Shown one piece after another: positions 437 through 63,635 of a DNA stretch of 64,000 nt. The notes beneath the pieces were generated by a model. It was not told the DNA's origin and ran no database searches. It worked only from the letters and a program-made list of their open reading frames with translations. Location of the stretch: the IMG/VR virus record IMGVR_UViG_3300042396_000450, positions 47,624 to 111,623 of that record, one strand, 5' to 3'. Source of the stretch: a virus. Numbering within the stretch: the first letter of the stretch is position 1; each line of letters starts with the position of its first letter. Position numbers and translations under genes: made by a program.

Positions 437-472
437 ATATTATAATTACTCATATACACTATTTTCTTACTC

Positions 473-3400
473 ATGACAACAACCTATAGTTCGGGTAAAT
501 TACAACTTACATTTAATTCAGGTAATGTATCTGTAGTTAATGGTTCAGGTAACTTAGGAGTTACAGGAACTTACTATATCTCTATTCAAGGTCGGAATCT
601 AATTGGACTTAATCTGAATAGTACATTAGTTCCAGTTACTTTAACTACAACATCTACATTAACTATAACATTACCATCATTAGCTAGTGGTGAAACTTGG
701 TCTGACATAGTTATATCAGCATCAACTACTAATAACGTATCTGCCTTAACTCAAGTAATGGTAGTTAATAGTGCTGATTTTAATTCGCCAGTTATATTAA
801 CTAGTGTTGAGTTGTTCAAGCTAACTACACTTGCTCGTACTGTAGCTAACTCTGCTGCATTACCAGCAACACCAATTCAGGGACTTATAAGATACATAAC
901 TAACCTCAACTACTACTATGAATACGATGAATACAGTACAGCAACTGTAGATAACTTAACTGTATTAACTGCAACTACTGGTAGATGGCTTAGAGTAGGT
1001 GCAATTAGTACGTATATAACTGATACTACAGCTACAGATGGATGTGATCAAGATGTTCGCACACCTAATCTAATTGTTAATGCACCATCATATACTTGTG
1101 ATGGTAGTAAAGGTGATGGAGTTACCTTCTGGTTACGTAATGAATTTAGCACTATTATTTCAAGTGGAACTAGAATTAGTTGTACTGTGCGATTATTTGA
1201 GGAAGATAAATCTCAATTGTTCGATAGTCTCCTAATACTAGAACTACTTGGTTATGTTAATTTAATAACTGGAGTATTAGATGCTTCAGTTAGTAGTGGT
1301 GAAGTAACTTATCAACCTCGTAGTCAATGGTTAACATTACCAGAGGATCTCGACATTGGTTATGCTGCTGTAGTTAGAGTTAGTCCTAAATTCACCATTA
1401 CTGATTTAGATAACAATGTTCCATATCTAGCTAACTTAACTACATACGTTACATTTGCTCCAACTAGCGGTATCTATACTCCTGGTGTATTCGGCAACTT
1501 AATTTACAACGAATATGATAAGTGGCGCATTTATTCTGATGTTGGACTTAGTGTAATTAAGAGTAAGGGTAGTGGAATAGTTAATAATTATGAACTTAAT
1601 GATATATCCGCCGAAACTATAACAGGGTTAAGTTCTAATACCGCCAACCAGTATATTTTTCTTACTAGTAATGGTACTTCGTTCGCATCAACTACTAGTT
1701 CATTCGTTAGTGCAGTTAAGCGATGTGTAGTTAGTACAGTTAATGGTATAGGAACTCCAGTTAGTTATGGTAGCTTCGCGTTAAATAACACTAAGAAGTT
1801 ATCTGTAACTGTTAATTATCCAACTAGTGTTAGAAGTAATTATCCTGATGCTCTTATTGCAGGTTCTAGTAAAGGTAAGTTTAATGCAACTAATGTTGTT
1901 ATCTATATTAAGAATAGTAGTAATGCCGTATTCGTAACTGAAGTTAACATAACTCCATCTGCTAGTAATGATGTTTATGTACTTAATTATAGTGACTTTA
2001 CTAGTTCTACATTAGCAACACCATCTAGTAATTATGGTTTATATACACCATTAAGTGTAACTACTTCAACTCCATCTAACAGTAGTACATTTCCTACTGG
2101 TAGTTATGAAGTGTTTGTTGCATTTAAATACACTGGAGTTGTTACAGTTATTGATCATAGTGTTAGTGAGTTATATGAGATAACAAGTAACCTGAGTGAG
2201 TTATTCTCAACTAGTGCAACAGTATGGTATAGCGATAATGGTGTTCCTAGTAGTTTAATTGGTGAAGATGGTTCATATTATCTTAATTATGATAATGCTA
2301 ATATTTATAAGAAGGTTAATGATACTTGGAGTTTAGATGGAAATATTAGTGTTATTTCACCTTCATTTACTACTATTGCAGTTAGTGGACAAAGTAATGT
2401 AGTTGCAGATCAAACTAATGATAGTTTAACTCTAGTTGCAGGAACTGGTATTACATTAACTACTAATGCCACAACCGATGCTATTACTATTACTGGAACT
2501 AGCGTCACTAATACATTTAGTACAATAACTGTAGCTGGACAATCTGATATAGTTGCTGATAATGGAACTGATACATTAACTATTGCTGCTGGTAGTGGTA
2601 TTACCTTAACTACAAATTCTGCTACTGATACATTAACTATCGCAGGAACTGCTGTTAGTAATACATTTAGTACAATTGCAGTTAGTGGTCAATCTGATGT
2701 AGTAGCTGATAGTGCCAGTGATACTATTACGTTAGTTGCTGGAACTGGAATGACTATTACAACTAACACCACTACAGATACTATTACTTTTGAAAGTAGT
2801 GGTGTTAATGTTGATGTTACGCGAACTTCTACAATGTCTAATAGTATTGGAACTGGTAGTAAGACGTTTACTTATACTGCTAGTTCTAACTTAGGATGGT
2901 TAGTTAGTACGAGATTGCGTGCTGCGTATGATGTTTCTAACTATATGGAAGGTGTAGTTACTGCTGTTAGTAGTACCTCAGTTACTATTACATCAGATAA
3001 TGCAGTTGGTAGTGGAACTTATACTAGTTGGAACATAACAATAGCTGGAGATAAAGGTTCTACTGGAAGTGCTGGTAGTTTAAATGCCGCATCTGGATTT
3101 ATATTAACTCCTGTTGGAAGTCCCATTACTACATCAACTAACGAAGTTGGTTTCTATGTCGATAGCACTGATAACTTATTTAAAACTAGAGACGTTAATA
3201 ATGGTACAGTTAGAACATTAGCATCATTAAATAGAGTTCAAGCATTTACTCAAACACAATATGCTACACCTGTTATTAATAATTCTGCTACTGGGACAGT
3301 AACTTTAGACGGTAGTGCTAGTAATGTTTTCATACTAACTCTAACTGGAAACCTGACTCTGACCATGAACAACATTCAAGTTGGAGCAACTTATATCATC

Positions 3401-3574
3401 TACTTAATTCAAGATGAAACTGGTAGTAGAACTATTACACTTGATGCTATATTTAAACGATTAACTGGTGATACAACTACAGTTAATACAACAGCTAATA
3501 AAGTTAATATGTTAACTGGAGTAGCTAGATCATCTAGTGCAATTACATTAGCTCCTATATCAGTTGAGGTTTAA
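473..3574 (+). CDS. Tail fibre / tail-associated structural protein
   Basis: 1033 aa, Thr/Ser/Val-rich. Three internal ~50-aa repeats, a short collagen-like GDKGSTGSAG stretch and a C-terminal phage tail beta domain (LTLTGNLTLT...YIIYLIQDETGSRTI). Confidence 0.75.
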   Translation: MTTTYSSGKLQLTFNSGNVSVVNGSGNLGVTGTYYISIQGRNLIGLNLNSTLVPVTLTTTSTLTITLPSLASGETWSDIVISASTTNNVSALTQVMVVNSADFNSPVILTSVELFKLTTLARTVANSAALPATPIQGLIRYITNLNYYYEYDEYSTATVDNLTVLTATTGRWLRVGAISTYITDTTATDGCDQDVRTPNLIVNAPSYTCDGSKGDGVTFWLRNEFSTIISSGTRISCTVRLFEEDKSQLFDSLLILELLGYVNLITGVLDASVSSGEVTYQPRSQWLTLPEDLDIGYAAVVRVSPKFTITDLDNNVPYLANLTTYVTFAPTSGIYTPGVFGNLIYNEYDKWRIYSDVGLSVIKSKGSGIVNNYELNDISAETITGLSSNTANQYIFLTSNGTSFASTTSSFVSAVKRCVVSTVNGIGTPVSYGSFALNNTKKLSVTVNYPTSVRSNYPDALIAGSSKGKFNATNVVIYIKNSSNAVFVTEVNITPSASNDVYVLNYSDFTSSTLATPSSNYGLYTPLSVTTSTPSNSSTFPTGSYEVFVAFKYTGVVTVIDHSVSELYEITSNLSELFSTSATVWYSDNGVPSSLIGEDGSYYLNYDNANIYKKVNDTWSLDGNISVISPSFTTIAVSGQSNVVADQTNDSLTLVAGTGITLTTNATTDAITITGTSVTNTFSTITVAGQSDIVADNGTDTLTIAAGSGITLTTNSATDTLTIAGTAVSNTFSTIAVSGQSDVVADSASDTITLVAGTGMTITTNTTTDTITFESSGVNVDVTRTSTMSNSIGTGSKTFTYTASSNLGWLVSTRLRAAYDVSNYMEGVVTAVSSTSVTITSDNAVGSGTYTSWNITIAGDKGSTGSAGSLNAASGFILTPVGSPITTSTNEVGFYVDSTDNLFKTRDVNNGTVRTLASLNRVQAFTQTQYATPVINNSATGTVTLDGSASNVFILTLTGNLTLTMNNIQVGATYIIYLIQDETGSRTITLDAIFKRLTGDTTTVNTTANKVNMLTGVARSSSAITLAPISVEV
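2365..2790 (+). repeat. Three tandem ~150-bp coding repeats (F[ST]TI[AT]V[SA]GQS[ND][VI]VAD...TL[VA]AG[TS]G[IM]T[LI]TTN...DT[IL]T)
   Basis: Visible in translation and DNA (e.g. aatacatttagtacaat recurs near 2510 and 2660). Confidence 0.85.
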
Positions 3575-3576
3575 TC

Positions 3577-4269
3577 ATGTTTACTTTTCCAGTTGGTTTT
3601 TTTAATCCTATTGTTAGTGGTGGTGTAGATCCTTTTGCCGCAAACGTAGCTCTATTTCTGAAAGGCAATGGATCTAATGGTAGTACAAATATCATTGACA
3701 GTTCACCAAATCCTAAAACAATTTCTGTTTTTGGCACTGCTCAAATTAGTACAGCGCAAAGTAAATATGGTGGGAGTAGTTTGTTTTCGACAGATACAAC
3801 TTTGGGTAGCTTTGTACAAGCAACTACTACAATAAACTTGTCAAACTATACATTTGAAGTCTGGATATACCAGACAGTAGTATCTGATTGGACTTTATTT
3901 GCTGGTAGTATGCTTGGGGACGTTGATTTTAGTATTAATGGAAGTCAAATAAGAATAGGTAGAACAAACGTATCATGGGATATTACAACAAATGTAGCAT
4001 TCACTTACAATACATTTCAACATATTGCTTTTTCTCGTTCTAATTATACTCAAAAAATATTTCTAAACGGATTAGAAGTATTTAGCAGTAATTATGAAAT
4101 CCCACTTACAGCAACAAATCCTAGAGTAATGTGTACCAGAGATAATTATCAGGGGACGTTTGTTAGACAATTGTATGGTGGTTATGTAGATTCAGTTAGG
4201 TTAACTGATTCTGTTGGCAGGTATACTACTACTTTTAACCCTGAAACTGACACTTACTTGAATGTTTAA
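3577..4269 (+). CDS. LamG/concanavalin-A-like tail protein (candidate receptor-binding)
   Basis: ALFLKGNGSNGSTNIIDSS...AQISTAQSKYGGSSL...FEVWIY...HIAFSR...GYVDSVRLT pattern typical of phage LamG tail proteins. Confidence 0.75.
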   Translation: MFTFPVGFFNPIVSGGVDPFAANVALFLKGNGSNGSTNIIDSSPNPKTISVFGTAQISTAQSKYGGSSLFSTDTTLGSFVQATTTINLSNYTFEVWIYQTVVSDWTLFAGSMLGDVDFSINGSQIRIGRTNVSWDITTNVAFTYNTFQHIAFSRSNYTQKIFLNGLEVFSSNYEIPLTATNPRVMCTRDNYQGTFVRQLYGGYVDSVRLTDSVGRYTTTFNPETDTYLNV

Positions 4270-4306
4270 TTATGAAATTTGCTCAACAACTACTATCTAA
4301 CTTATT

Positions 4307-5200
4307 ATGAACGAACGTAAATTAATAGATGAAATTAAACGCTTAGTTAACAATGATGTAATTATTGGTTACTATAATGGAACTACATTTACTGACGATA
4401 ATGGTAAAACATACGCTTCCAGCTATTTAGTAACTAATAATTCTCCTATTGGTAGAGGATTCATAGTTCCATATGAAGGTAAATGGTTAGTTGTAGTAGC
4501 TAATAATAATCAAGAGGTAAGAAAAAATATAATAACTAGTAGAAGGAAGATAAGTATTGAAGATAAACCTAAACTTACTATTGATTATTTACTAGTTAAC
4601 CCATTAATTAAATATGCTGGGACTATCATACCAGTAAATAACACATTTTATACAATTAGAGATAACAAATGGAAAAAGTATGAATTACCAGAAATAAGAG
4701 GATACTTAAATTATTATATTGATAGTAACTATGTTGTTATAAAAGGTGATGAAAAGGATGAGAGATTTAATCAATTAATCGTTTTAAAAGATGACGTATT
4801 TACAACCTATACATATCCAGAAGAACTTCCTGTATTAAAAACATGGCGCAAAGATTTTTTTAATACTTATGATAAGTATAAGGACTTTTATATTTATGGT
4901 AATCCTAGTAGTGGTATTAGTAAGATATTTACAGGGCGACAAAATAGATTATATAAATTATCCGGTATAAATGTAGATTTTTTTTATGGATCTTCACGTT
5001 TAGATGACATTATTGAAGCATTAAGTTTAGAACAATCTATTAATCTAAATATTGTTTCATGTCGTTTTACTGAGGATGACATTACTAATTGTAGGAAAGA
5101 ACCATTTAAAGTGAAAAGTCCTAAATTAGATACTAATATTATTTCTCCTGAAGAAGTAAACAAACAAACTATTGTTAGCACTTATATTAAATTTCAATGA
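4307..5200 (+). CDS. Hypothetical protein in the virion gene block
   Basis: 297 aa ORF between the tail genes and portal; stop overlaps the portal ATG. Confidence 0.6.
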   Translation: MNERKLIDEIKRLVNNDVIIGYYNGTTFTDDNGKTYASSYLVTNNSPIGRGFIVPYEGKWLVVVANNNQEVRKNIITSRRKISIEDKPKLTIDYLLVNPLIKYAGTIIPVNNTFYTIRDNKWKKYELPEIRGYLNYYIDSNYVVIKGDEKDERFNQLIVLKDDVFTTYTYPEELPVLKTWRKDFFNTYDKYKDFYIYGNPSSGISKIFTGRQNRLYKLSGINVDFFYGSSRLDDIIEALSLEQSINLNIVSCRFTEDDITNCRKEPFKVKSPKLDTNIISPEEVNKQTIVSTYIKFQ

Positions 5201-6438
5201 ATAACCATTATCTGTCATCTCAAATAACTGGATTAACTACTAACATTGTTCAAGAGTTAGTAAGTCCACATAAACACACAATCCGCGATTATGAATCCAT
5301 ACTTCGTAATCCCTGGGCTAAGGAATGCTGTAATATTAAATCACTCAGAGCAACTGTAACTATAGGTGATTATCAGAATAAGAATAAAGAACATCAGGAC
5401 TTCATACTTGATGCTATAGCTAATATGGATGGCACATTATCTGACATAGTAGGACGATTATGTAGTGCTATGCCATTTGGACATAGCAGTGCTGAAATAG
5501 CATTTAAACCAATACGTTCATTTGGTAAGACTCGCTACACACTGAAGGGAATTAATCTACTCGATCCTAAGAGAGTGCGTTATGCTGGTGCTGCTGGTAA
5601 ATTAACTCATATTCGATATAACGATGGGATTCGTGCATTATGGATTCCTTATAACAAGTGTCTTCATATTACTAACGGATTAGTTACTAACTATAACGAA
5701 CGTACTGCTTATGGTGATCCAGAGTGCGAAACAGCCTATCCATACGTCAAACTATACGAGATTATATTCAGTGAAATGGCGGTTAGTGCTAAGACACTTG
5801 CGGTAGGTATATTACTAGGTCGTGCTGATACTGAGAATACTGTTTACTTACAAAATAAAGATGGTAGTCAATACATAGACGTTAGAACTGGTAAACCTGT
5901 AGCTATTAGTGCTGTAGCTAACCTAGCTGAACAGTTTCAGAACCTTGAAACTCACAGTCATATAGTTACCGATAAACGTAATGAAGTTAGTGCCTTACAG
6001 ATACCAGCAGGTGAACAGTTCTGGAATCTCGCAGAATCTATGTTGCGTAAGAATATATTTGCTGCATTTGGTGTACCTAGTATGGTGCTTGACGAAGGTA
6101 GTGGCGGTATTGCAACTGCTACACTCAGTGTTAAACATTTGTCAATTCTAGATAGTACAGTTGAAGCAACAGTTAAGAAGATTAGAGATCAACTGATTGA
6201 GAAAGTTATACGTCCACTTATTATATGGAACTATGGTGTTCAAGATGATTATGGTAGCTTCGCAGTTACTAATGTTAATGATCCGACTCAGGAGAGCGCA
6301 CAGATACAAAACTTCATAACTGCATTTACTACACAAGTAATACCCATGACTGATCTAGAAGCAATGAATAAGTTTCGTGAGTTGATGAAATTATCACCAA
6401 CTACAGAAGTTAGTCAGCCGGAGACTCAAAGCTATTAA
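5197..6438 (+). CDS. Portal protein (DUF935 / Mu gp29-like)
   Basis: 413 aa; SAMPFGHSSAEI and DQLIEKVIRPLIIWNYG segments resemble DUF935 portals. Confidence 0.7.
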   Translation: MNNHYLSSQITGLTTNIVQELVSPHKHTIRDYESILRNPWAKECCNIKSLRATVTIGDYQNKNKEHQDFILDAIANMDGTLSDIVGRLCSAMPFGHSSAEIAFKPIRSFGKTRYTLKGINLLDPKRVRYAGAAGKLTHIRYNDGIRALWIPYNKCLHITNGLVTNYNERTAYGDPECETAYPYVKLYEIIFSEMAVSAKTLAVGILLGRADTENTVYLQNKDGSQYIDVRTGKPVAISAVANLAEQFQNLETHSHIVTDKRNEVSALQIPAGEQFWNLAESMLRKNIFAAFGVPSMVLDEGSGGIATATLSVKHLSILDSTVEATVKKIRDQLIEKVIRPLIIWNYGVQDDYGSFAVTNVNDPTQESAQIQNFITAFTTQVIPMTDLEAMNKFRELMKLSPTTEVSQPETQSY

Positions 6439-6745: not shown

Positions 6746-7546
6746 TTATAAAATACCAAGAGCTACTAGTTCATTGTATAACACTTCTATATTACATTGA
6801 TAATAAGTATAGTGAGAACCACTTCCACCATAATAGTCATCTTCATGAATTTCACCCATTGAGCAGCTAATCGCATATAACTTCTTATAGGTAAGAAAAC
6901 TAATGGTCGGATCTATGCTAGTAATGAGATTATCAAATGCCTCAAAGTTAGCTAATGGTTCATCTCCATCATAGTATGTAATATCGTCATCCCAACAGTT
7001 ACCACTACTACCACCAGTAAACCAACTATCTGATTTAAAATATGGTTGATTAATGGTACAACCTAGATTATATTTATCTGCAAACACTAACCAATCTGGT
7101 TTAACTGCAACTTTATGTAACTTCATCGTTGTATTCTCAAATAGAAATTTAAATTCATCTAAGTTAGGTACATCTAGAGGTAATGTCTTAATACTAAATG
7201 CACTAGAGATATCACGTCTATTAACATCATTAATTAAACACTGATTACGATTCTCTTCCCAGTAATGTATCTCTATCTCAGTTAACTCTTTATTCTTAAC
7301 TAGTGCATTAATAACTAGAGTTAATTGTTCATTAGTGTGAATTAAACCATCAATAATAAATGTATCAGTTATATAACGAATATAGTTATCTAACCTAGTT
7401 AACTTATTAACTGCATTCTTCTTATAACGTTTAAGTAGATCATCAAAATCAATATGTCTAATACGTTTATTATTAGATGATTCTAGTTCCTTCGCAAATG
7501 TAGTTTTCCCACTACTCGGCAATCCCATCAATATTAATACTTTCAT
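6746..7546 (-). CDS. P-loop kinase (AAA_33-like) with an unknown C-terminal domain
   Basis: N-terminal Walker A GLPSSGKTT and FIIDG. Confidence 0.7.
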   Translation of the reverse strand: MKVLILMGLPSSGKTTFAKELESSNNKRIRHIDFDDLLKRYKKNAVNKLTRLDNYIRYITDTFIIDGLIHTNEQLTLVINALVKNKELTEIEIHYWEENRNQCLINDVNRRDISSAFSIKTLPLDVPNLDEFKFLFENTTMKLHKVAVKPDWLVFADKYNLGCTINQPYFKSDSWFTGGSSGNCWDDDITYYDGDEPLANFEAFDNLITSIDPTISFLTYKKLYAISCSMGEIHEDDYYGGSGSHYTYYQCNIEVLYNELVALGIL

Positions 7547-7997
7547 CTTTAATGTATGTAATTACAATAGCTGTTGCATCTGCACTATGAGAACTCGTAA
7601 ACTTAGTAGTAGTTCCTAGATACTCATTAACTGAGTTACTAATCATAGCTTTATCAGCTTTACCAGTTCCAGTTACTACTAACTTAATATGTTTAGGAGT
7701 GTAACTATAAATAGACATGGATTTTAGTCTACTTAATACTTCAAATATACCAATGGCGCGATTTAGGCGTTCTCCATTGTTACCGCGACCTAGAAATACT
7801 GGTGCTTCGTATATCAGAGTATCTGGTGAATGCTCCGTCAATAACTTCTGATATTGGTGATAAATATGAACTAACTTATCGGAATCATCAGGTTGAGTTG
7901 CTGTTATTTCTCCAGTAGAGATAATCTTATTAACATCGGTATCGAATACACAATAACCGATGTTAACAATGCCGGGATCTATGCCAATTAATATCAT
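7512..7997 (-). CDS. ruvC: RuvC-like Holliday junction resolvase
   Basis: IGIDPG...GY, LIYE, YTPKHIKLVVTGTGKADK, HSADATA motifs. Confidence 0.9.
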   Translation of the reverse strand: MILIGIDPGIVNIGYCVFDTDVNKIISTGEITATQPDDSDKLVHIYHQYQKLLTEHSPDTLIYEAPVFLGRGNNGERLNRAIGIFEVLSRLKSMSIYSYTPKHIKLVVTGTGKADKAMISNSVNEYLGTTTKFTSSHSADATAIVITYIKDESINIDGIAE

Positions 7998-8014
7998 GAT
8001 TATAGTTAACTTAA

Positions 8015-8506
8015 CTACATCAATAATAACTCTATATTAACTGGAGTGTAGTTAACGCATTCTACAGATACACATTTAAACAACTTAGAGTCGTGTGTAG
8101 TTATTGAGTTATGAAGATGTCCATGTACATTGATGAAGTTAACTCTACTTACTGGTTTGTGAGTTAGAAGTACATTAGTTAAGTTAACCTCTAGTTCTAA
8201 CTCATTATAGACATCGAGGAAACCAACATTCTTAAACCATGTATTAGTGTGACCTTTATCATGATTGCCACGAATTAGATACTTACTGCCATTTAGTTGA
8301 TCCATTATTAACTTAGTGTCGCGGAATCCAGCAAACGTAACATCACCTAAGTTATATACTATGTCATCATCATTAACTACACTATTCCAATTGCTGATAA
8401 TTACATCGTGCATATCACCAGTAGTTAGAAATGGTCTATTGCAATACTCAATTACCTTATGATGAAATAGATGTAAATCACTAATTACGTAAATCATAAT
8501 CTGCAA
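8015..8506 (-). CDS. Calcineurin-like metallophosphoesterase
   Basis: DLH, LGD, GNHD, THKP, HGHLH motifs. Confidence 0.9.
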   Translation of the reverse strand: MQIMIYVISDLHLFHHKVIEYCNRPFLTTGDMHDVIISNWNSVVNDDDIVYNLGDVTFAGFRDTKLIMDQLNGSKYLIRGNHDKGHTNTWFKNVGFLDVYNELELEVNLTNVLLTHKPVSRVNFINVHGHLHNSITTHDSKLFKCVSVECVNYTPVNIELLLM

Positions 8507-8960
8507 ACGTTATGTTATCTAATTTAACTTGATTAATTAATGTCCAGTTACTCCAATCCAAATTAAGATATCTATCACCATTAACTACATTATAAGTATG
8601 AGTAATAAATAACTTAGTTACATGAGGTAACAGCGTAGCATAGATACTAGATCCACCTATTATCCAGATAGGTTTGTTATATGATCTAGCTACACTGATT
8701 GCAGTATTAATATCACTGATGAAGAATGTCTCAGATTCGTTAGTAGTCAATCCCTTGTCGCGCGTAATGATGATATTAACGCGGTTAGGAAGCTTCCTAG
8801 AGCGTAGATCACCTCTGAAGGTATTAGCTCCCATTATGACTACTCCACCTGTTGTGAGTGCCTTAAAACGCTGCATATCGGCACAGTCATAATTAACTAA
8901 TTTGCCGCCATTACCAATGCAGTTATTGAGAGATATATTAGCTATTAGATTCATAATCAA
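8481..8960 (-). CDS. folA: Dihydrofolate reductase
   Basis: IGNGGKL, DMQRFKALT, VIMGANT, LPNRVNIIITR, IIGGSSIY, GDRY. Confidence 0.9.
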   Translation of the reverse strand: MIMNLIANISLNNCIGNGGKLVNYDCADMQRFKALTTGGVVIMGANTFRGDLRSRKLPNRVNIIITRDKGLTTNESETFFISDINTAISVARSYNKPIWIIGGSSIYATLLPHVTKLFITHTYNVVNGDRYLNLDWSNWTLINQVKLDNITFADYDLRN

Positions 8961-9877
8961 TTCCTTTGTCTAGTTATCCACTGTAATATTGTATTAATTT
9001 TAGTATCAGGTTCTACAGCTTTAATTAAATCAGCAATATCTTTATTTGATAAACTTACATTTTCATCATAAATCTGTTTTCTTACCTCTGATTTATTTTT
9101 ATATTCATTAGGATCTACTTGCCATTCAATACTTCCATTTTCTAATTTAAAGATGTAATTTGTTTCATCTATTTGTTCAATGTTATTTTTAATTTGATAT
9201 AAGCGTTTAATTTTCTTATTAGGAGATGGTTGATCTAATGCCCAAATAATTTCAGGATATTGAACTATACCACTAAAACCGCGTACCGATCTAGTAGTGT
9301 ATTTATTATCCTTAATTTCACTCTTGTTAACTAATTGAGTAAATACAACTGCAATATTATATTTAAGAGCGATAGTAGCAAACCATTGTAGACAAGGTAG
9401 AACTTGACACGTATTTTCATCAACAATATTAAATCCAGATAACGAATCAACTATTAATAGTTCAATGTTTTCTGATTCAATAATCTTTTCAATTAATTCA
9501 ATATCATCACTAACGTTATATGTAACTATCTCTAGTGGATTTTTAGGTGTAATGTAGTTGTTTCTACTACCACCTAATAAATCAATACGTTTAACGAATG
9601 ATTTAATACGACCTTCTGTATCAATAATTAATACTCTACCTGTATCTTTAATTTCATAATCTTCTCTAGGTAAAAATGGTATATTACTAGTTATTGATAA
9701 ACTAGCACCAACTAGACACCAACTTTTACCAATACCACCTTCAGCAACTACAGCACTAACACGACCTTTAGGAAATAAACCTCCTATATATTCAACTTCT
9801 ACATTTTCAACTTCAAGATTCATAACAGTGTGTCGTAAACTTGGAATATATAGACTTTCAACAAATACATCATTCAT
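8957..9877 (-). CDS. RecA-fold ATPase (AAA_25 / RepA-like helicase)
   Basis: Walker A AEGGIGKS, IDTE, Walker B LLIVDSL. Confidence 0.75.
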   Translation of the reverse strand: MNDVFVESLYIPSLRHTVMNLEVENVEVEYIGGLFPKGRVSAVVAEGGIGKSWCLVGASLSITSNIPFLPREDYEIKDTGRVLIIDTEGRIKSFVKRIDLLGGSRNNYITPKNPLEIVTYNVSDDIELIEKIIESENIELLIVDSLSGFNIVDENTCQVLPCLQWFATIALKYNIAVVFTQLVNKSEIKDNKYTTRSVRGFSGIVQYPEIIWALDQPSPNKKIKRLYQIKNNIEQIDETNYIFKLENGSIEWQVDPNEYKNKSEVRKQIYDENVSLSNKDIADLIKAVEPDTKINTILQWITRQRN

Positions 9878-10029
9878 CTTATTAAGGGTTTATATGTTGT
9901 ATATGATTAATTATAAACTACAACATTGTCAGGGGTGGATAGGAAATGTTGTAAATAAAATAATTAAGTATTATTTAAGATTCATAATTCATAATAATAC
10001 AGGTAAGTAAGAAAAAAGGTAGGGCGATT

Positions 10030-10239
10030 TCAACACTTGTATAATCTGATGCTAAGTATCTATCCGCCACTCCAAACATGAATCCGCCAGTTAGTAATGT
10101 GAAACTAATCCATCTCAGTTGTTTCATCTGATTAATGTATCCAATCTAATAATTCATTACAAGTAATAACACCGTTACATTGATAAACGTAGTTAAGTTA
10201 TCTAAAGTACCACTTAACTTACATCAAGTTATCTATCAT
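10030..10239 (-). pseudogene. Decayed 69-codon ORF with five in-frame TAA/TAG stops
   Basis: Manual translation MIDNLM*VKWYFR*LNYVYQCNGVITCNELLDWIH*SDETTEMD*FHITNWRIHVWSGG*ILSIRLYKC; ATG overlaps the upstream stop. Confidence 0.4.
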
Positions 10240-11722: not shown

Positions 11723-12018
11723 AATCCAGCTTTCCTTACTTGAATATTATTGTTAATTAAATACTGTAATCCTTCTAACTTAGAGTGTTCATTGAAGTAA
11801 ACAACTCTTCTAATACCTTTATTTACAATTTCTCTAGCACAGTAAATACATGGAGAATAACTAATAAATAAATCATCTCCTGGTGTAGCTAATTGTAATC
11901 CTATTTCTTCAGCATGATAATATTGACATCCAATAACTTCATTAATTGCTTTCATTAAAAACAACTTATGATTATCATGTAATACATCAAATCCACCACC
12001 TGTTATAAGTGTAACCAT
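11701..12018 (-). CDS. Short dCMP/cytidine deaminase-like protein with a cytidylyltransferase-like N-terminus
   Basis: HAEE and SPCIYC...GIRRVVY deaminase motifs; N-terminal GGGFDVLHDNH resembles the HxGH motif. Confidence 0.6.
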   Translation of the reverse strand: MVTLITGGGFDVLHDNHKLFLMKAINEVIGCQYYHAEEIGLQLATPGDDLFISYSPCIYCAREIVNKGIRRVVYFNEHSKLEGLQYLINNNIQVRKAGLCQNNNF

Positions 12019-15147: not shown

Positions 15148-15407
15148 ATGATGATAGGTGCTGCAATTAAAAACGTTAATATTACTGCAACACTATCACT
15201 ACCTGGAATGTCATTAAAAAATAACTCAATTAGTTGTCGTCGCATGGGAACACATCCTTACAATAAGTCCAATTAAGTACATTTTGTTCAATAACTTCTA
15301 AATCAGAGTCTATCCATCTGTAATCTATATATTTAGCTAATAGATATATTTTCTTACCGCTTTCATATTCTATTTGAACTAAACATTCATCAGTTGTATC
15401 AGGTAAC

Positions 15408-53582: not shown

Positions 53583-54080
53583 TCAAGCCAATCTATAACC
53601 TTGATTATATATTGTCGCATATTTAATCACTCCCATATCAGAAAAGTTGTCTATGAAGCGTTGAATTATCGCAGTATCCTGACTTAGTAAGAAAAAAGAA
53701 GAGTAATGCGCCGGATTACGTCCTGGTTGGAGATAATTGGGGTTACTAACACCATTAACCTCAGTTCTACCATCTATCCAATTAATACGGCTGCGACACT
53801 TAACATGAACATAGGTTTCAAGTTCAGGTACTTGCCAGCATACAGACTCACTGTAACCAGCAAATATGATGTTAACACTCTTATCATTCTCGTATGTCTC
53901 AATTGCTTTAATTGCCGCACGACTAGCAGGAATGGGCGGATTACAATATACATTACCAGTCCAATCTAATTCATAGCCGCCTGTACCATCAGGAGGAAAT
54001 GGATCTAAAGTTACACCTAATGTTGAATTAACTTTATCCCAAATATATGGTGGTGTATACCAACTACTACTATTAGACAT
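53583..54080 (-). CDS. Phage DNA N6-adenine methyltransferase-like protein (atypical NPPI motif)
   Basis: WYTPP, LDP, W.GNVYCNPP, RINW pattern of small phage Dam-family MTases. Confidence 0.6.
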   Translation of the reverse strand: MSNSSSWYTPPYIWDKVNSTLGVTLDPFPPDGTGGYELDWTGNVYCNPPIPASRAAIKAIETYENDKSVNIIFAGYSESVCWQVPELETYVHVKCRSRINWIDGRTEVNGVSNPNYLQPGRNPAHYSSFFLLSQDTAIIQRFIDNFSDMGVIKYATIYNQGYRLA

Positions 54081-56858: not shown

Positions 56859-57023
56859 TCATAACAGATTTAGAATGTCTTTGTATGATGTAGGTTGTTT
56901 AACTTGATGTTTGTTTAATTGACGTATAGCAAATCTCCCTAATCTATCAAAAGTGACAAAGGTTAAGTTAGTGTTCTCTAAATCAACATCAGGTAAAGTA
57001 ACTTTAGTAGCCCACTTATTCAT
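56859..57023 (-). CDS. 54-aa protein ending in the SYKDILNLL tag (below the ORF-track cutoff)
   Basis: MNKWATKVTLPDVDLENTNLTFVTFDRLGRFAIRQLNKHQVKQPTSYKDILNLL. Confidence 0.65.
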   Translation of the reverse strand: MNKWATKVTLPDVDLENTNLTFVTFDRLGRFAIRQLNKHQVKQPTSYKDILNLL

Positions 57024-57987
57024 TTAACTTTCTCAATTGTTCCCAAGCTTCAGGTAAATATTTTTGTAATGCTTGCCAGTATTCTACTACTTCTGTGTCG
57101 GGATAGTAAGTACAAACTTCACAAGCATCTTCATAGTTAAGGAATGTAGTAGCGTCATTAGGAGAATTACCCCATTCTAAAGTTCCTCTTTTATAATACT
57201 TATTTGTTTTAGTATTCTTAACTACATACTTTGAATTTTTAGTCATAGCATAACTTCTTTTTACAGTTTTAGTTGATTCAATACTCATGTAGGTTCTCAT
57301 TTGATTACTCTCACTTATTTTCTTACTTAATGCAGTTAACATCATGATGTCATTCCCTAAATCAGAAATTTCATCTTCGTCATCAATTAAACTAGAGCGA
57401 GTTTGATACTTAACTATTAGATTATTAATAGCTAATATTATGAACACTCTATCCTTAAATCCTAATTCCATAGTAGTTACTTAACTTAGTTACCTCGTTA
57501 AGTTGAATGTTAACTAGTTAGTAACAACTAATTCAGCTAATGTTTTACCATCAACAGTTAATACACCATTCTTAAAGTTAACCTCATCACCCAAATATTC
57601 ATTCTTAACTGTTTCCAACCAAGGACTTCCACAACAACCACAACCTCCAATAGACATATCATATTCAACATACAATGCTTCTAACTTAGAAAGAAATTCA
57701 ATTGTTCGCTGATTCATATTACACCTTTACTTTCTTGATTGCACGTTTAATTGGTTTACTTAATTCAACAGCTTCATCATAAGTTAGAAACTGTTTATCT
57801 CCAACTATGAATACTTCACGTAACTCGAATCTATCAACTACAGATGTACCGGGTTTAGCAGGTCTAGCGAATACGTTACTCATGTTATTCTCCTAATATT
57901 TTAGAAAGTAAATCAATTACACTGGATAGAAATAATCCAAATAGTGTACCAAGTAAGAAAATAAATAGTATTGGCATTGTCAATCTC

Positions 57988-58581
57988 CTAATAAACTAAT
58001 AGTTCACTATTAAATCGCACTAACTTAAGTAGAGTTAGCAGTTTCCAATCTACAGGAAATGACTTGAATCGGAGATCTGTGCGTGATTTAATTTCCATCT
58101 GTTTAACCTGTTTCCATTTACGTAACTCCTCAATAACACTATCTTTAATTGGTACATCTAACCATTTAGATAACTCAATTAATAATTTAAGTGATTCCGT
58201 ATCAGATGTACATTGAACTACACCTACACTAGATTTATTTCTATGTTGATAAAACGCATATTCGCTGGACTTAACTTGAAAACCAAGCCATTGATCATTT
58301 CGTTTAACTGCAATGTCTACTTGATATACAGAATCAAGTATGGTGTAATTTTCAACTAGATGCACTTCATCTAATTGAAGTAACTTGAGAATGTTAACTA
58401 GATACAACTCTGTTTTCTTACCTTTGTCAACAGCAGCTTTAGTATTGTAATTTGGTCTAGTAAGTTTAATTTTATCTAGACCATATATCAGATGATCTAG
58501 TGTTAACTCGTATGGTTTGTTGGCGATCTTGAAGCTCATAACATTGTCCTCTAAATAAATTGACCAACAAAGAAAGCGCAA
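57988..58581 (-). CDS. PD-(D/E)XK-like nuclease
   Basis: GKKTE...D....VDI...GFQVKSS. Confidence 0.55.
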   Translation of the reverse strand: MRFLCWSIYLEDNVMSFKIANKPYELTLDHLIYGLDKIKLTRPNYNTKAAVDKGKKTELYLVNILKLLQLDEVHLVENYTILDSVYQVDIAVKRNDQWLGFQVKSSEYAFYQHRNKSSVGVVQCTSDTESLKLLIELSKWLDVPIKDSVIEELRKWKQVKQMEIKSRTDLRFKSFPVDWKLLTLLKLVRFNSELLVY

Positions 58582-60311
58582 CTTAATTGCTGCGCTACCT
58601 TAATTGATAATCTATATGGTTACTTAAACTTGATATTACTAGTCTCAATCTTCCCCGTATGTTCCTCAACTTCAATCTTAGTTTCAGTTACCTTCTCAGG
58701 TGGAGTATTTTTATCTGCATAACTACTAGTTGTAGTCTTAACTCCATCTTTAATTACAATTTCAATTCCAACTAATCGTTTATCCGACATACTTATCTCC
58801 TAGATAATGTTTAACTAATGCTAGTGGAACATTACAATAAATATTCTCAGGATTAGTAATTGATCGAATATGCACATCACCTTTTATACCTTCAGATACA
58901 ATTTCCCAATCATGTAATCCTAAATGTGGATGAAAGTAAGAAAAAACAGGTGGTTTGTACAATTCAATATTATTATTATAAACCAGCTTTTCACCCCAAT
59001 CTTCATGTTCAATTACATAATAATAACCATTTCTAGTTATATATGTAACTTCAAACACATGACCTTGTGGTTGATTAAGTAAAACAACTTTATCTCCGAT
59101 ATTGAATTTATTCATCTTCATCTTCTCCTTGTGGTGCTGGTATAGTTGGACTTTCTTCTCCATTACCTCTTTCATCAGGATCTAACTTCATTACGATTCT
59201 CCATAGCAAATAATTCATCACGAGTTAACTCAACACGATCTAAATCGTTATCATCTACAGTGTCATAGAATAACTTCATAAATTTAGCATTATCAACTTT
59301 TAATTTCTCCAATAGCTTAAGACATTCAATTAAACCTCTAACATAATAGTATTCACCATCAACACGTATTCTGATAGCTATACTTAATATTTTCTTACCA
59401 TCTTGATCTGTTACTACATTAATAATTGGTTTCCATGCTGTGTAACGTTCAAGATTAATACCGCCGCATTCAAGTTCAAAATTCTTCATTATACTCCTAA
59501 TAAGAATCGGTGTGTTCATCAACTTACTCTTTTTCTTACAATTTGAATGTCTTGTGGTTCATACGCTAACATTAATCCTACTATCTGGATATATAACACA
59601 AGCACTAAGATAACTACTTACGAACTTTACTAAATCCTCATATTTGCCCCAACCGTTAGCGGGATTTAACTTCCTGTATTTATCAGGATCACTAATTAAT
59701 TCAATCAACCCTTCAGCTAGAGGTTTAATTAACTCACTAGCATTAGTTACTTCTGGATGCCATAAACACTCATACAATCCAGCTAATTCAGCCATTGTAT
59801 TTAGATTGTGAGTTATGTTAGCAGTAAACACTTCAGTAGTAGTTACTTCATCAGATACAACTACAACTGGTTCATCTATCGTTAACCAAACATCTAAACT
59901 CATTATTCTGCGTATATAACAGTAGTTACATCAACAATTACACCATTACGTGCGAGTATTATAAGTTGATCATCAAGCTTAACATAATAATAATGAGATT
60001 CAAGTGGAATATCAGTTAATGCAGATTTAAGTTCACTTGTTAAAGAACTAAGTTCAGCTTCTTTCTTTTCTCTAGTTACGTCTAACTCTTTAACTTCAGC
60101 TTTAGTTTCTAAAATGTTTACGATGATTTGTCCTAATTTACTCATTCTAATTCCTCCATAATTACATCATCGTCATCATCACATGAGAAGAGAAACTCAT
60201 CATATGATTCCTTGTTAAGTTTAGTTAGAAGAAGACGTGCATCCTCATTGTGTAGTGTGTACATAAACTTAGTTGAACTGTAGTTAAATTACTTAACTAC
60301 AGTTAGTTATC

Positions 60312-60772: not shown

Positions 60773-62755
60773 TTATACCTTAACTCTCATAGTTCTATTA
60801 CCATTAACTCTAACTACAAAGTTATTACGTAATGTTGAATTAAATCCAACTCCAGATAATTGGTTACTGCAAGATGGTGTCTTTAACTTATCACCAAGTA
60901 CATCAAATACCTTACGACTATGCTGAACTAATTCAGACTTAAGATACTCATTAAAGATAGATCGAGGATTATCTGAATTAACACATCCTTCTAACATAAA
61001 GAGATAGTGTTTTTCACCGATAGCAGTTGTCCAATGATTAGGAGATAAACTAACTAGATTGACCTTATGGAATAAATTAGTCTTAATACCCCATATCTCC
61101 TTAGATGACACACTAGAACCGCTACTATCAAGTGATTTAACAATAGTAAATCCTTTTAATTTGTCGAATTTAACAGTAACTACAGGTATTGTCTCTCCAC
61201 CTCGAAGATTCTTATTATATGCGTAAGAAAAAAGAGTACCATCTATTTCTAATTCAGCAGTAAATCCGCCATTAGATGTACGAGATGAATAGTTATGAAC
61301 AAAGTATGTGTATTCACCATCCAGCATTCGGCGGCGATCTATGTGAACTATGTTCTCTACTGCAACTCCTCTAGGAACGCGTATATCAACGTCCAACGAG
61401 CCACCAGTATTTCTACTAACTTTATTATTGTATGCAATCTCACAATAAAGAGGTTCTCTACAATGAGCATCGAAATCAATAATGTTATTATCATTATCAT
61501 TCCATTGAATACTAAACCTACTAACTACATTATCTACACGTCCACCTGCTGCTTTAACTCTCTCACGCATACTATCAGCATTACCGCCATTGTAAACCCA
61601 GCTAAATGAGTTATCCCACTTAAATAATGTAGGTGCTGCACTATCTACAGCAGTTACTAAACTAACTAAATTACCACTATGGCGCGATTCAAGTAGTAAC
61701 TCAACATTAGTAGCACCAGGTAACACATCATTAATAAACTCATCTATGTTAACTTCATCTAACTTAACTAATGACTTAGGATTAACAGGAACTTCATCTA
61801 ATATGCTATCAAATACATTAGTATTGAGTTTCTGAGAGCGATTAATAAACAGAGCATCATTAACGTTAATATCAGCTTCATTTGCAAATCTCCTATTTAA
61901 TGCAGATTCTAAACCTAGTTCAATTACAAGTTGATTAGCTTCCTCTACTTGTTTCTTAGTAGAGATAACTTGATTAGTTCTCATGTAGTTAGATGGAGCT
62001 ACCATAGCTTCATATTTTCTAACTGCAACATTAATATCAACACTATTAGATAAATCAATTAATAAACTACCTATTGAAGTGTTTCTAATACCTGCAATAA
62101 ACGAACTAGAGTTAATCCAACAATAGTTATCCTTATTAATAGTATCCTTGTATTCTTGTTGATGTTTAAGTAATTCAATTAAACTAGTTTTATTTGATTC
62201 ACCTCTATATAACTGATTTTGTGCAATTAACTCAAGCACTGTTTCAGTTGAATCAATTGATAGTTCATTTAATGCTCGTTTAAATGTTTCCTTCTTACTA
62301 CGTTTATCAGACATCAAGGTATTTTCAGTTAAAAAAGATTGAGTTACTAATGTACTAGGTAACTCATAATAGAGATGTTGCCATTCTACATCAATAGTTA
62401 AACTACGATCTGTACCTAACTTAGATTGTTTAGTTATGAATACATTAGTTATGTTAGATTCACTAACTAACTTATCTAATGCAGCTATAACTCCTGCATA
62501 CATAACGTCATCTACAGTGAAATCCCACATTGACTTAACTTCACCATCTTTAATGGCAACTACATTACCATACTGTTTAATAAACTGTCTACAACAGTTA
62601 CAGTTAAATCCTTGACGTTCATCATCAGGAAACGCATTTAAATAAGCATCCCATAACTCATTCTTATTAACATCAGTTACATATAACCGAACTTGTCCTT
62701 CAATGAGTTTATTGAAGTTACTTTGAAACAATACTTTAAATTCATTAAATTGCAT
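60773..62755 (-). CDS. Large hypothetical phage protein (N-terminal CNCC motif; C-terminal YfaP/DUF2135-like DFDAH...LDVD...VENI segment)
   Basis: 660 aa ORF with AGGAG SD. Confidence 0.65.
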   Translation of the reverse strand: MQFNEFKVLFQSNFNKLIEGQVRLYVTDVNKNELWDAYLNAFPDDERQGFNCNCCRQFIKQYGNVVAIKDGEVKSMWDFTVDDVMYAGVIAALDKLVSESNITNVFITKQSKLGTDRSLTIDVEWQHLYYELPSTLVTQSFLTENTLMSDKRSKKETFKRALNELSIDSTETVLELIAQNQLYRGESNKTSLIELLKHQQEYKDTINKDNYCWINSSSFIAGIRNTSIGSLLIDLSNSVDINVAVRKYEAMVAPSNYMRTNQVISTKKQVEEANQLVIELGLESALNRRFANEADINVNDALFINRSQKLNTNVFDSILDEVPVNPKSLVKLDEVNIDEFINDVLPGATNVELLLESRHSGNLVSLVTAVDSAAPTLFKWDNSFSWVYNGGNADSMRERVKAAGGRVDNVVSRFSIQWNDNDNNIIDFDAHCREPLYCEIAYNNKVSRNTGGSLDVDIRVPRGVAVENIVHIDRRRMLDGEYTYFVHNYSSRTSNGGFTAELEIDGTLFSYAYNKNLRGGETIPVVTVKFDKLKGFTIVKSLDSSGSSVSSKEIWGIKTNLFHKVNLVSLSPNHWTTAIGEKHYLFMLEGCVNSDNPRSIFNEYLKSELVQHSRKVFDVLGDKLKTPSCSNQLSGVGFNSTLRNNFVVRVNGNRTMRVKV

Positions 62756-62979
62756 AACTCTAAGTCTCCTAATTGTGTTAACTCTAAACTAACTTAATTA
62801 ACAATGAATAGTTATCACTAAATCCTGCAAACTTAAATGACTTATAATGGACAAGTTACAGGAACTAAAGCAACTATTAATTGAGCTAGTTGTTTCTTAC
62901 TTAACTAAATATCTCTCTAATTAAGATACTTAGTATACTAAGATACTTCACTAACTCGCCCCTTACACTGTTCTAGGAA

Positions 62980-63370
62980 ATTTAGATAGATCTATCCTAA
63001 ATACCTAACATTACTACTACTAGTAGTCTTTTTAACGTTGCGACTTGTTGTTAACTCAGTGCAACTAATTACTTACCATTGATCCTAACTATTGCTAGGT
63101 GGTGTCACTTGACTTGTCGGGACATTACCTGGTATCTCTAGATGTCCGAACATTGTGCAACCGTGATAGTGACCTTCTTTATGTTTTAGCTCTAGAGCCA
63201 GGACTTTCACCCTGATCACGGTGTAGACTACTGGTGTTCTGAGGTGTCTTGATAAGACCCAGTGCCTACGGAATGAGTAAACCCCTTAAACTCATACTCC
63301 GCATACCAGCCAATACCGTAAACTACGTGACGCAGTATCAAGGGATCTTTCGATATTAGCTAGTAATATC
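62980..63370 (-). ncRNA. Putative large structured noncoding RNA
   Basis: ORF-free, locally GC-richer stretch with at least 7 nested or adjacent stem-loops; strand inferred from neighbours and G-U pairing. Confidence 0.5.
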
Positions 63371-63584
63371 ATAACTTAGTTTTTAATAAATTTACAACTA
63401 AATTATTCAAACAACTTAATACTGAAGGTTTTTGTTCTAGTAACATTTCCTCATATAATTCGACAGCAATATCATATACCGCGCTACGTCGTTGATCTAT
63501 TAACTTATTTTCATGAGCTTGACATTCTTCAGGAGTGTCAAATAACTTACCATCTCTGGATTGATACTTAGTTACTTTTTTCAT
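63369..63584 (-). CDS. Small hypothetical protein (YQSRDGKLFDTPEECQAHE type)
   Basis: 71 aa ORF with AGGA SD. Confidence 0.65.
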   Translation of the reverse strand: MKKVTKYQSRDGKLFDTPEECQAHENKLIDQRRSAVYDIAVELYEEMLLEQKPSVLSCLNNLVVNLLKTKL

Positions 63585-63635
63585 TATCTTAATTCCTGTG
63601 ATGTTTAACTTATTTTCTTACCATGTCAAGATAAA

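Follow-up and report, generated by a model that had tools for sequence, protein, structure and literature searches.

The stretch analyzed here (the window) comprises 64,000 nucleotides, positions 47,624 to 111,623 of the virus record IMGVR_UViG_3300042396_000450. The record is a phage genome in a single contig of 111,623 bp with 32.2% G+C (hereafter G000), and the window is its right-hand 64 kb, ending where the record ends. G000 is a tailed phage. The genes of the window include those for a class II ribonucleotide reductase (RNR), an SF4 helicase and a family A DNA polymerase; a Mu-type portal was also identified, and thymidylate synthase, DHFR, dCMP deaminase, RuvC, an SSB-like protein and a Sak4-type ATPase are encoded as well. 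Dispersed through the window on both strands, mostly inside genes, is a short asymmetric word, GTAAGAAAA, which is the subject of this study.

The word and its copies in the window

The window contains 53 exact copies of GTAAGAAAA, 22 on the plus and 31 on the minus strand, compared with 1.51 ± 1.23 (maximum 5) in dinucleotide-preserving shuffles. A preliminary description of the window had put the expectation by hand at about 2, close to the shuffled value; all the coordinates it listed were right, and it missed a single copy at 20686–20694 on the minus strand. The whole genome carries 87 exact copies (42 on plus, 45 on minus), or about one per 1.3 kb, making the word the most abundant of all 9-mers of G000, where Markov models of order 0 to 4 predict 1.3–3.0. 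The copies in the window are the following, with the open reading frames (ORFs) in which they lie.

462–470, minus: between ORFs
1657–1665, minus: antisense in ORF 473–3574 (plus), read IFLT
4517–4525, plus: sense in ORF 4307–5200 (plus), read VRKN
6891–6899, plus: antisense in ORF 6746–7546 (minus)
9077–9085, minus: sense in ORF 8957–9877 (minus), VRKQ
10007–10015, plus: antisense in small ORF 9975–10127 (minus)
11663–11671, minus: sense in thymidylate synthase gene 10748–11722 (minus)
12606–12614, plus: antisense in CYTH gene 12069–12728 (minus), FSYT
13097–13105, minus: sense in ORF 12732–13259 (minus), GKKK
13521–13529, minus: sense in ORF 13497–14060 (minus), VRKI
15349–15357, minus: sense in small ORF 15230–15415 (minus)
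15696–15704, plus: antisense in HD-domain gene 15408–16001 (minus)
17861–17869, minus: sense in ORF 17651–18040 (minus)
19594–19602, minus: sense in class II RNR gene 18725–20929 (minus)
20686–20694, minus: sense in class II RNR gene (the copy absent from the earlier list)
20806–20814, plus: antisense in class II RNR gene
21604–21612, minus: sense in Bro-N gene 21151–21933 (minus)
21952–21960, plus: between ORFs
22875–22883, minus: sense in ORF 22641–22955 (minus)
23910–23918, minus: between ORFs; conserved in the relative L061
24671–24679, plus: antisense in DNA polymerase gene 23924–25360 (minus)
26526–26534, plus: antisense in ORF 26255–26593 (minus)
26805–26813, minus: sense in small ORF 26640–26831 (minus)
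29508–29516, plus: antisense inside the primase gene
30428–30436, minus: sense in Thg1-like gene 30225–30953 (minus)
31233–31241, plus: antisense in ORF 30991–31428 (minus)
31985–31993, minus: sense in ORF 31428–32438 (minus)
32475–32483, plus: antisense in ORF 32410–33090 (minus)
34137–34145, minus: sense in ORF 33571–34383 (minus)
35032–35040, minus: sense in SSB-like ORF 34748–35167 (minus)
36356–36364, plus: sense in small ORF 36347–36565 (plus)
37902–37910, plus: antisense in polynucleotide kinase-phosphatase (PNKP) gene 37364–38212 (minus)
38068–38076, minus: sense in PNKP gene
39918–39926, plus: left arm of a convergent pair (22 nt between the arms), in AAA_24 gene 39740–40570 (minus)
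39949–39957, minus: right arm of the same convergent pair, in AAA_24 gene
42509–42517, plus: antisense in ORF 41875–43335 (minus)
43840–43848, minus: in overlapping ORFs 43372–43836 (minus) and 43586–44107 (plus)
45742–45750, minus: sense in ATP-grasp gene 45034–45810 (minus)
45964–45972, plus: antisense in small ORF 45813–46004 (minus)
46924–46932, minus: sense in small ORF 46738–46971 (minus)
48289–48297, minus: between ORFs
51521–51529, plus: antisense in ORF 51200–52345 (minus)
51980–51988, minus: sense in ORF 51200–52345 (minus)
53130–53138, minus: sense in ORF 52342–53520 (minus)
53687–53695, plus: antisense in ORF 53583–54080 (minus)
57318–57326, minus: sense in ORF 57016–57471 (minus)
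57953–57961, plus: between ORFs
58413–58421, minus: sense in ORF 57988–58581 (minus)
58936–58944, plus: antisense in ORF 58780–59175 (minus)
59390–59398, minus: sense in ORF 59175–59522 (minus)
59531–59539, minus: between ORFs
61223–61231, plus: antisense in ORF 60773–62755 (minus)
63613–63621, minus: between ORFs

The core of the word is sharp. Each of its 27 one-mismatch variants occurs 0–9 times in G000, which is the background level, and G precedes TAAGAAAA in 87 of 90 occurrences. Near matches of the form GTAAGAAAC occur in the window at 20212, 25825, 34461 and 44907, as already described, and also at 36063 and 62892. On the 3' side, position 10 is never G (0/87 copies), position 11 is A or T in 83/87, and positions 12 and 13 are each purines in 74/87; C is nearly absent out to position 15, with at most 4/87 copies at positions 11–15. 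The composition of positions 10–15 thus bears out the purine-rich 3' extension noticed earlier. The extended pattern GTAAGAAAAHWRR is fitted by 37 of the 53 window copies against 0.19 expected, and the full form can be written (R)GTA-AGAAAA-HW-RR with a C-poor 3' flank.

A second, GC-rich word, (W)GGCGCGA(TT), is also over-represented in G000 (16 copies vs 0.5 expected), as is the related TGCGGCG (10 vs 0.5). Examples in the window lie near 7755, 46410, 55967 and 61681 on the plus strand and near 26012 and 42475 on the minus strand. The GC-rich word sits 7–13 nt 3' of the 9-mer in several cases, and a GC-rich element is found within 45 nt downstream of 18 copies of the 9-mer versus upstream of 2. 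Words resembling TGCGGCG are enriched in the relatives L003, L059 and L062 too. Part of the GC-rich copies correspond to Gly-Ala codons of a glycine-zipper protein module.

Selection, strand alternation and spacing

Genome-wide, 44–45 copies of the 9-mer are in sense orientation within ORFs, 31 are antisense and 11–12 lie outside ORFs. The sense copies use only two frames, read VRK or xKK, the third sense frame being one that would hold a stop codon; the antisense copies occupy all three frames, read FSY, xFL and xFLT. With five reading frames in use and non-coding copies besides, a peptide motif was rejected, as the preliminary description had done, and an RNA-level function was rejected on account of the 31 antisense coding copies. 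A search of the window against Rfam returned no RNA family, and the window has no tRNA genes. A few copies fall in a repeated basic/glycine-zipper or FFLT(D) protein module.

The abundance of the word inside genes is not a by-product of protein sequence or codon usage. Shuffling synonymous codons while keeping the proteins left 20.7 copies, including 12 untouched non-coding ones, and shuffling codon order within genes left 14.3, again including those 12; the corresponding coding expectations are about 9 and about 2, compared with 75 observed. Two close relatives, L060 and L061, were found by a DNA polymerase search, the primase alignment being too divergent to serve as a seed. L061 is 87–92% identical to G000 (10.7% nucleotide divergence), and none of 54 motif columns differs between the two where 5.8 differences are expected (P ~0.002), all shared sites being intact. 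L060, which is 98–99.8% identical, shows no difference in 90 motif columns. The pair L002 and L003 has one motif change against 2.6 expected and is too little diverged to test conservation. A DNA-level recognition site under selection within coding sequence, as had been proposed from the window alone, is therefore supported by both the codon shuffles and the excess conservation in relatives; counts near the codon-shuffle expectation and a lack of excess conservation are both ruled out. Residues covered by the motif are conserved at 50.5%, compared with 46% for the rest of the proteins. Because they are no less conserved than the rest, it cannot be claimed that protein sequence gives way to the word; copies occur where the peptide already comes close to accommodating it.

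The main new result is the signature of strand alternation and per-strand spacing. Successive copies in G000 tend to switch strand, forming 60 strand runs where 44.4 are expected (z 3.36, p 4e-4). The gaps between all copies are more even than random placement allows, with a coefficient of variation (CV) of 0.69 versus 0.98 (P ~3e-4), and the gaps on each strand taken separately are more even still, with CVs of 0.52 and 0.69 versus about 0.98. Copies on the same strand are about 2.6 kb apart on average, with gaps reaching 5.6 and 7.4 kb at most. Only 59% of the coding copies are in sense orientation, compared with 82% for 251 words of the same composition, an antisense excess with p 3e-6. The word had been called non-polar, which holds in so far as there is no genome-wide polarity (42 plus, 45 minus, with local alternation and no switch point), and fails in so far as orientation matters, both in the alternation and in the even coverage of each strand. 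In this respect the word is unlike the translocase-guiding FtsK-orienting polar sequences (KOPS) and SpoIIIE recognition sequences (SRS), since it shows no strong strand skew switching at an origin or terminus.

Strand alternation and per-strand evenness recur in two relatives with different words. In G003 (127 kb), GTCCGAAA has 85 copies versus 4 of the reversed control, a runs z of 3.31 and per-strand CVs of 0.61 and 0.61; in G006 (a 71-kb fragment), AACGAAAG has 52 copies versus 3 of the reversed control, a runs z of 2.86 and CVs of 0.56 and 0.70. The plus strand of a further relative, G002, has a gap CV of 0.79 (p 0.012). All nine close pairs of GTCCGAAA in G003 are convergent (plus, then minus) with 26–95 nt between them, and none is divergent; the pair inspected (L004:16941–16974, L004 being from the G003 record) is an intergenic hairpin with an 8-bp stem. 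G000 has one close convergent pair, at 39918–39957 of the window and inside a gene.

These observations bear on the possibility that the word is a landing site on duplex DNA for a KilA-N/Bro-N or Rha-type regulator, for a prophage repressor of the stoperator kind, or for an architectural or genome-organizing protein. Bro-N and Rha-like proteins are encoded in the window, a KilA-N-like protein is common to G000 and the two relatives treated below (a Scytonema prophage and Pseudanabaena phage PA-SR01), at least one relative is an integrated prophage and must therefore have a repressor, and a sharp 9-bp core with lineage variation is typical of the co-evolution of a protein and its site. A binder of duplex DNA indifferent to orientation would let copies take the cheaper sense orientation, so that about 82% of them should be sense; what is seen is 59%, with alternation and per-strand evenness in three lineages. 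We conclude that selection supplies each strand separately with sites, and consider a duplex landing site unlikely. The stoperators of Cluster A mycobacteriophages (L5 gp71, Bxb1 gp69) are similar in being an asymmetric word, of 13–14 bp there, dispersed in a temperate phage genome with lineage variants. Stoperators number about 24–36, lie mostly between genes and point with transcription. Here, 87–172 sites occur per genome, far above known operator sets, with alternating orientation and mostly within genes (75/87 in coding sequence, 31 antisense), and the stoperator-like repressor suggested earlier fails on orientation and location.

Related words across the phage clade

G000 belongs to a clade of 110–155-kb cyanobacterial phages, which we delimited by portal homologues. 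A megablast search with 9 kb against the phage collection gave no match. Its members carry the following words.

L037 (portal 56% identical) and L062: GTAAGAAAA again
G002 (117 kb, terminal repeats): (G/A)TAGAAAAA; 172 copies of TAGAAAAA versus 26 of the control, and only 3 of GTAAGAAAA
Scytonema sp. NUACC26 contig (155.8 kb): (G/A)TAGAAAAA; 168 copies of TAGAAAAA
Pseudanabaena phage PA-SR01 (cultured): GGCAGAAAA, also written (G)GCAGAAAA; 27 copies of GGCAGAAAA versus 1.7 expected
G003: GTCCGAAA
G006: AACGAAAG
L049: CTGGAGAAA
L053: TTGAAAAAG

Judged from these genomes, each lineage of the clade has its own purine-rich word. The form in G002 and the Scytonema contig is RTAGAAAAA, and the lineage variants have an AGAAAA/GAAAA core in common; the commonest 11-mer of the Scytonema phage is TGGTAGAAAAA (TGGTA followed by GAAAAA). 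More distant relatives have no sharp word in the 21 kb sampled from them, or only the highly iterated palindrome (HIP1) of cyanobacteria.

The Scytonema contig, which holds the closest relative of cellular origin, allows phage and host DNA to be compared directly. Its first ~23 kb hold ordinary cyanobacterial genes (for KdpD, AnmK, Ser/Thr kinases, and pentapeptide-repeat, ABC-transporter and response-regulator proteins), which identifies this relative as an integrated prophage. The host portion has 4 copies of the word in 23 kb and the phage portion 164 in 132 kb, and the shift in density falls at the host–prophage junction near 23 kb. In the whole assembly (11.3 Mb), 99 of 506 copies of GTAGAAAAA lie in this one contig, which makes up about 1.4% of the assembly; the remaining 407 copies in 11.1 Mb (about one per 27 kb) are near the 307 of the reversed-word control. 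The word belongs to the phage clade and not to the host. The prophage is at least 132 kb long, as the contig (inspected over bases 1–24000, L015–L016) ends inside it, and its first phage-side ORF (23653–24909, 418 aa), for which Pfam gave no match, might encode an integrase of an unusual kind.

The stop at the junction and the low density in host DNA exclude host uptake sequences, host Chi and other host-wide signals. A host DNA-uptake sequence (DUS of Neisseriaceae, USS of Pasteurellaceae), or another host signal such as KOPS or HIP1 carried into the phage, can therefore hardly be the explanation and is largely refuted. The likeness to DUS and USS lies in a sharp 9–12-mer at about one copy per kb, on both strands and within genes in all frames, with spacing more even than chance, and the nine convergent pairs of G003 could form hairpins, as DUS pairs do. 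DUS and USS, however, are words of cell chromosomes read by the competence machinery, whereas the host chromosome here is not enriched and the word is phage-specific. HIP1 (GCGATCGC) shares with our word the host world, a similar density and an occurrence in coding sequence in all frames; it differs in being palindromic and shared with the host, while the G000 word is asymmetric. G000 has no copy of GCGATCGC or of its core CGATCG (a PvuI site), for which base composition gives a rough estimate of ~8, and no replication-linked polarity. Some relatives of G000 carry HIP1, and some are full of it.

A Chi-like role would be compatible with the asymmetry of the word and with orientation-dependent recognition, as Chi is a short asymmetric word recognized on one strand by a translocating enzyme (RecBCD or AddAB). 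A helicase-nuclease of host or phage would switch from degradation to repair at the word and so protect phage DNA or create recombination hotspots; alternation on both strands with capped gaps is what protection from nucleases entering from either side needs, and the phage has recombination functions (AAA_24/Sak4-like, RuvC and SSB-like). Chi, however, is enriched and polarized in its host, whereas the one identified host, Scytonema, shows no enrichment outside the prophage contig. Its assembly has no RecC homologue (PF04257; AddAB was not searched for), and the window ORFs that were scanned yielded no RecB/AddA-like helicase-nuclease. The terminally repeated G002 shows no polarity towards its ends (13 plus, 12 minus in the first 14 kb), and related phages of related hosts have different words. 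We regard a Chi-like function as improbable.

Positions of the word turn over while its density is maintained. Across 46 genes shared by G000 and the Scytonema prophage, only 3 of 30 G000 sites coincide with a prophage site; these three match to within 2 nt, in the same orientation and with the word converted, so that a site is now and then retained and its word rewritten. The converted sites, G000 versus prophage, are the following.

GGTAAGAAAATAGG versus GGTAGAAAAATAAGG
CGTAAGAAAAAATAG versus TGTTAGAAAAAATAG
GTAAGAAAAAAGGA versus GATAGAAAAAAGGA (antisense strand)

Such turnover, together with the lack of a halo of one-off variants around the exact word, would also be expected if a molecular drive without any function per site, as proposed for cyanobacterial HIP1, let phage repair or conversion turn near-matches into exact ones. 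HIP1 has a density similar to the one per 1.3 kb found here, and a module that the relative L001 seems to have acquired recently has no copy of the word. Drive alone, however, predicts neither strand alternation nor per-strand evenness nor an antisense excess; neither a Vsr-like or mismatch endonuclease nor a methyltransferase turned up, and the sites are strictly conserved between diverged relatives, which points to purifying selection. We therefore judge drive to be very improbable. The IMG/VR contig L001 shares ~2 kb with window positions 4242–6232 at 99% identity, covering the start of the portal gene and the gene preceding it. Upstream of this segment it has a different 9-kb module with 40% G+C and no word copies, at the place where G000 encodes a 1033-aa protein and a LamG-like ORF. 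The difference looks like a swapped host-recognition cassette.

Taken by their statistics, the words may be said to resemble DUS/USS and HIP1, by their logic Chi or priming sites, and as words co-evolving within phages the stoperators. The word lacks defining features of DUS/USS, Chi, stoperators, HIP1 and KOPS. Literature searches with the words as text strings returned only unrelated primer or oligonucleotide matches and no description of the words, and a keyword search on over-represented motifs in cyanophages returned nothing relevant. New here are the replicated signature of strand alternation and spacing, the series of related words across the clade, which includes a cultured member, and a testable candidate reader. 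We consider it very probable that a function encoded by the phage reads the word as a strand-specific recognition site, and that the site is under selection.

Phage genes and a putative priming site

The genes of the window that bear on the identity of the reader are the following.

29001–29834, minus: P0036, a predicted T7 gp4/DnaG-type primase of 277 aa that carries a Cys4 zinc ribbon at its N-terminus as well as a Toprim domain (EGEK, DxD)
27269–29056, minus: P0037, an SF4 replicative helicase of 595 aa (Pfam AAA_25 and DnaB_C; PHROGs primase/helicase families)
23924–26151, minus: a family A DNA polymerase, apparently in two ORFs (25357–26151, 264 aa, and 23924–25360, 478 aa)
39740–40570, minus: an AAA_24 (Sak4-type) recombination ATPase

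The primase ORF lies directly upstream of the helicase gene and overlaps it. A search of the Protein Data Bank with the single sequence of P0036 gave no match, and a profile of its homologues matches the T7 primase fragment 1nui_A (E 3e-4). In its AlphaFold2 model (pLDDT 81), for which the top Foldseek matches are Twinkle, the T7 gp4 primase domain and DnaG catalytic cores, P0036 is predicted to have a T7 gp4-type primase fold. The C-terminal region 388–481 of P0037 weakly resembles the DNA-binding fold of a terminase small subunit. The DNA polymerase matches phrog_1252 of PHROGs (E 8e-71) over the C-terminal half of the profile, and its split into two ORFs is conserved in the Scytonema prophage. 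The AAA_24 ATPase, RuvC (7512–7997) and the SSB-like ORF (34748–35167) are consistent with recombination-dependent replication. Homologues of both primase and helicase are present in the Scytonema prophage and PA-SR01; together with RuvC and the KilA-N-like protein, they are among the few non-structural proteins found to be common to all three phages. In a phyletic profile, the primase is present in 9 of 12 relatives, word-poor ones included.

The preliminary description had named antirepressor-like paralogs and a methyltransferase-like gene as candidate readers. Bro-N/Rha antirepressor-like genes are indeed present in the window, but show no link to the word. The window ORFs of at least 100 aa that were scanned gave no match to a methyltransferase family, nor to any HNH, GIY-YIG or other nickase family. 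These negatives speak against a phage site-specific nicking or base-modifying enzyme as reader, which would leave virion DNA nicked or modified at each copy. The nick motifs of T5/BF23, phiKMV and Pseudomonas phage tf offer a parallel, being short, asymmetric, phage-specific words presumably read by a phage enzyme. The invariant 9-mer with its position that is never G has an enzyme-like stringency, and the strand-specific logic would suit such an enzyme. Many proteins of the window have no assigned function, and the nucleotide-metabolism set (a thymidylate-synthase homologue, a dNMP-kinase-like protein and an HD phosphohydrolase) could support base modification. The known nick motifs are few, about 4–15 per genome, and lie on one strand only, whereas the G000 word is on both, and modification targets are normally not enriched. 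As nicking or modification also does not explain why selection would create and evenly space the sites, we find this improbable as well.

The reading we favor, to which we give a probability of roughly one in three, is that the word is a putative high-affinity priming site for the P0036 primase on the lagging strand. It starts from what was observed directly, i.e., the enrichment, selection, strand-specific spacing, phage restriction and lineage variants of the word and the presence and fold of the primase; the identity of the reader and the primer starts are what we infer from them. T7-type primases travel with the helicase along the lagging-strand template and read the single-stranded DNA as they go, so that recognition is strand-specific and sites are needed at intervals. 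The G000 word might likewise be a single-strand, orientation-dependent site read by the replication machinery of the phage itself. The purine strand would be the template for priming, and P0036 would favor single-stranded DNA carrying GTAAGAAAAAAGG. GTA would act as the initiation triplet, its T and G being copied into a pppA-C primer start with the 3' A as the "cryptic" base; the invariant AGAAAA plus HW could be the flank held by the primase, and the purine pair at flank positions 9–10 a counterpart of the T7 "-10 element". Forks would cross every region both ways, with which the Sak4-like, RuvC and SSB-like functions would fit; if forks run in both directions, sites must be supplied on both strands separately, at distances of a few kb at most. 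Selection would write the sites into genes wherever the protein tolerates them, and lineages of the clade might have shifted their specificity (GTA-AGAAAA, GTA-GAAAAA, GCA-GAAAA, GTC-CGAAA), each genome being rewritten to match.

The architecture of the T7 site offers a close comparison. It begins with 5'-(G/T)2GTC-3' and continues with an A/T-rich flank of 8 nt, in which A is the best and G the worst first base; flank positions 9–10 hold TA, TG, GA or GG, C abolishes binding there, and active sites are ~1–6 kb apart (PMC12839067). Other trinucleotide sites are GTT for T4 and GCA for SP6, next to GTC for T7, and GTA serves the T7 homologue AtTwinkle as an additional, less used site (PMC5737085). 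The G000 word can be parsed in parallel as GTA, the eight nucleotides AGAAAAHW and RR, almost without C. The leading triplets GTA, GCA and GTC of the clade words fit the G-Y-N pattern of T7, T4 and SP6, the 11-mer TGGTAGAAAAA of the Scytonema prophage begins like the TGGTC of T7, and the per-strand spacing in G000 (mean 2.6 kb, gaps up to 5.6 and 7.4 kb) is compatible with the T7 intervals. G000 and T7 thus share a homologous zinc-ribbon/Toprim primase, here beside an SF4 helicase, and an asymmetric site at kilobase spacing with a G-Y-N triplet, about eight A-rich bases and a purine or T-purine pair with C excluded, read on single-stranded DNA in T7 and putatively so here. Unlike in T7, where the flank is merely A/T-rich, the flank of the G000 word is invariant, with 9–13 bases specified, and the word is ~50-fold over-represented on both strands genome-wide and changes between related phages.

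Several points weigh against a priming site. Characterized primases of the DnaG/T7 type need only 3–5 specified bases, whereas the word is an invariant 9-mer without a halo of one-off variants, a stringency beyond that of any primase known to us; we know of no described primase with a 9–13-base requirement, nor of a genome shaped by one. Homologous primases occur in G004, G007, G008 and G011, whose 21-kb samples lack a sharp word, so that having the primase does not predict having the word. The relative L062 shares GTAAGAAAA with G000, and its primase is 44% identical to that of G000 versus 48% to that of the Scytonema prophage; no specificity code could be derived by comparing the zinc-binding domains of the primases with the words. 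The start of the triplet was chosen after the motifs had been seen, and AACGAAAG, CTGGAGAAA and TTGAAAAAG fit it less neatly. The Scytonema prophage and PA-SR01 are each even on one strand and uneven on the other, and the strand-specific pattern is one that a Chi-like site or a nick site could show as well.

A wider picture, which we regard as possible and more doubtful than the priming site itself, is that the clade, temperate and lytic members alike, keeps a private and fast-evolving "replication word". A stringent T7-like primase or primase-helicase would start lagging strands efficiently only on its own word, which would serve both as a priming code and as a mark of self versus non-self and would change together with the enzyme. 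If priming is indeed the function, this would be the first case of a primase template specificity visibly shaping a whole genome, a sequence read-out of the starts of Okazaki fragments, and a natural series of changed specificities from which to learn how primase zinc-binding domains read DNA. Otherwise, we would still be dealing with a code that is strand-specific, under strong selection and paid for with amino-acid choices in most of the phages' genes. In cyanobacterial assemblies, the words make it easy to recognize this phage clade and the boundaries of its prophages, and the cultured member PA-SR01 makes the question testable at the bench.

Other gene sets of the window, all on the minus strand, are worth recording. 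An RNA-repair set (16981–17649, 30225–30953 and 37364–39279) comprises a Thg1-like 3'–5' nucleotidyltransferase, the PNKP, a T4 Rnl1-type RNA ligase and a truncated class II aminoacyl-tRNA-synthetase-like protein, in a window without tRNA genes. A dTTP-supply module (8481–8960 and 10748–12018) encodes DHFR, a thymidylate synthase with an insertion and a dCMP-deaminase-like protein, and the B12-dependent RNR adjoins a cobalamin adenosyltransferase (18087–20929); the dTTP-supply module and the RNR fit the low G+C content. Finally, the ORF at 63636–63998, which runs off the end of the record, has a terminal FGE-sulfatase (formylglycine-generating enzyme-like) domain (E 1e-28).

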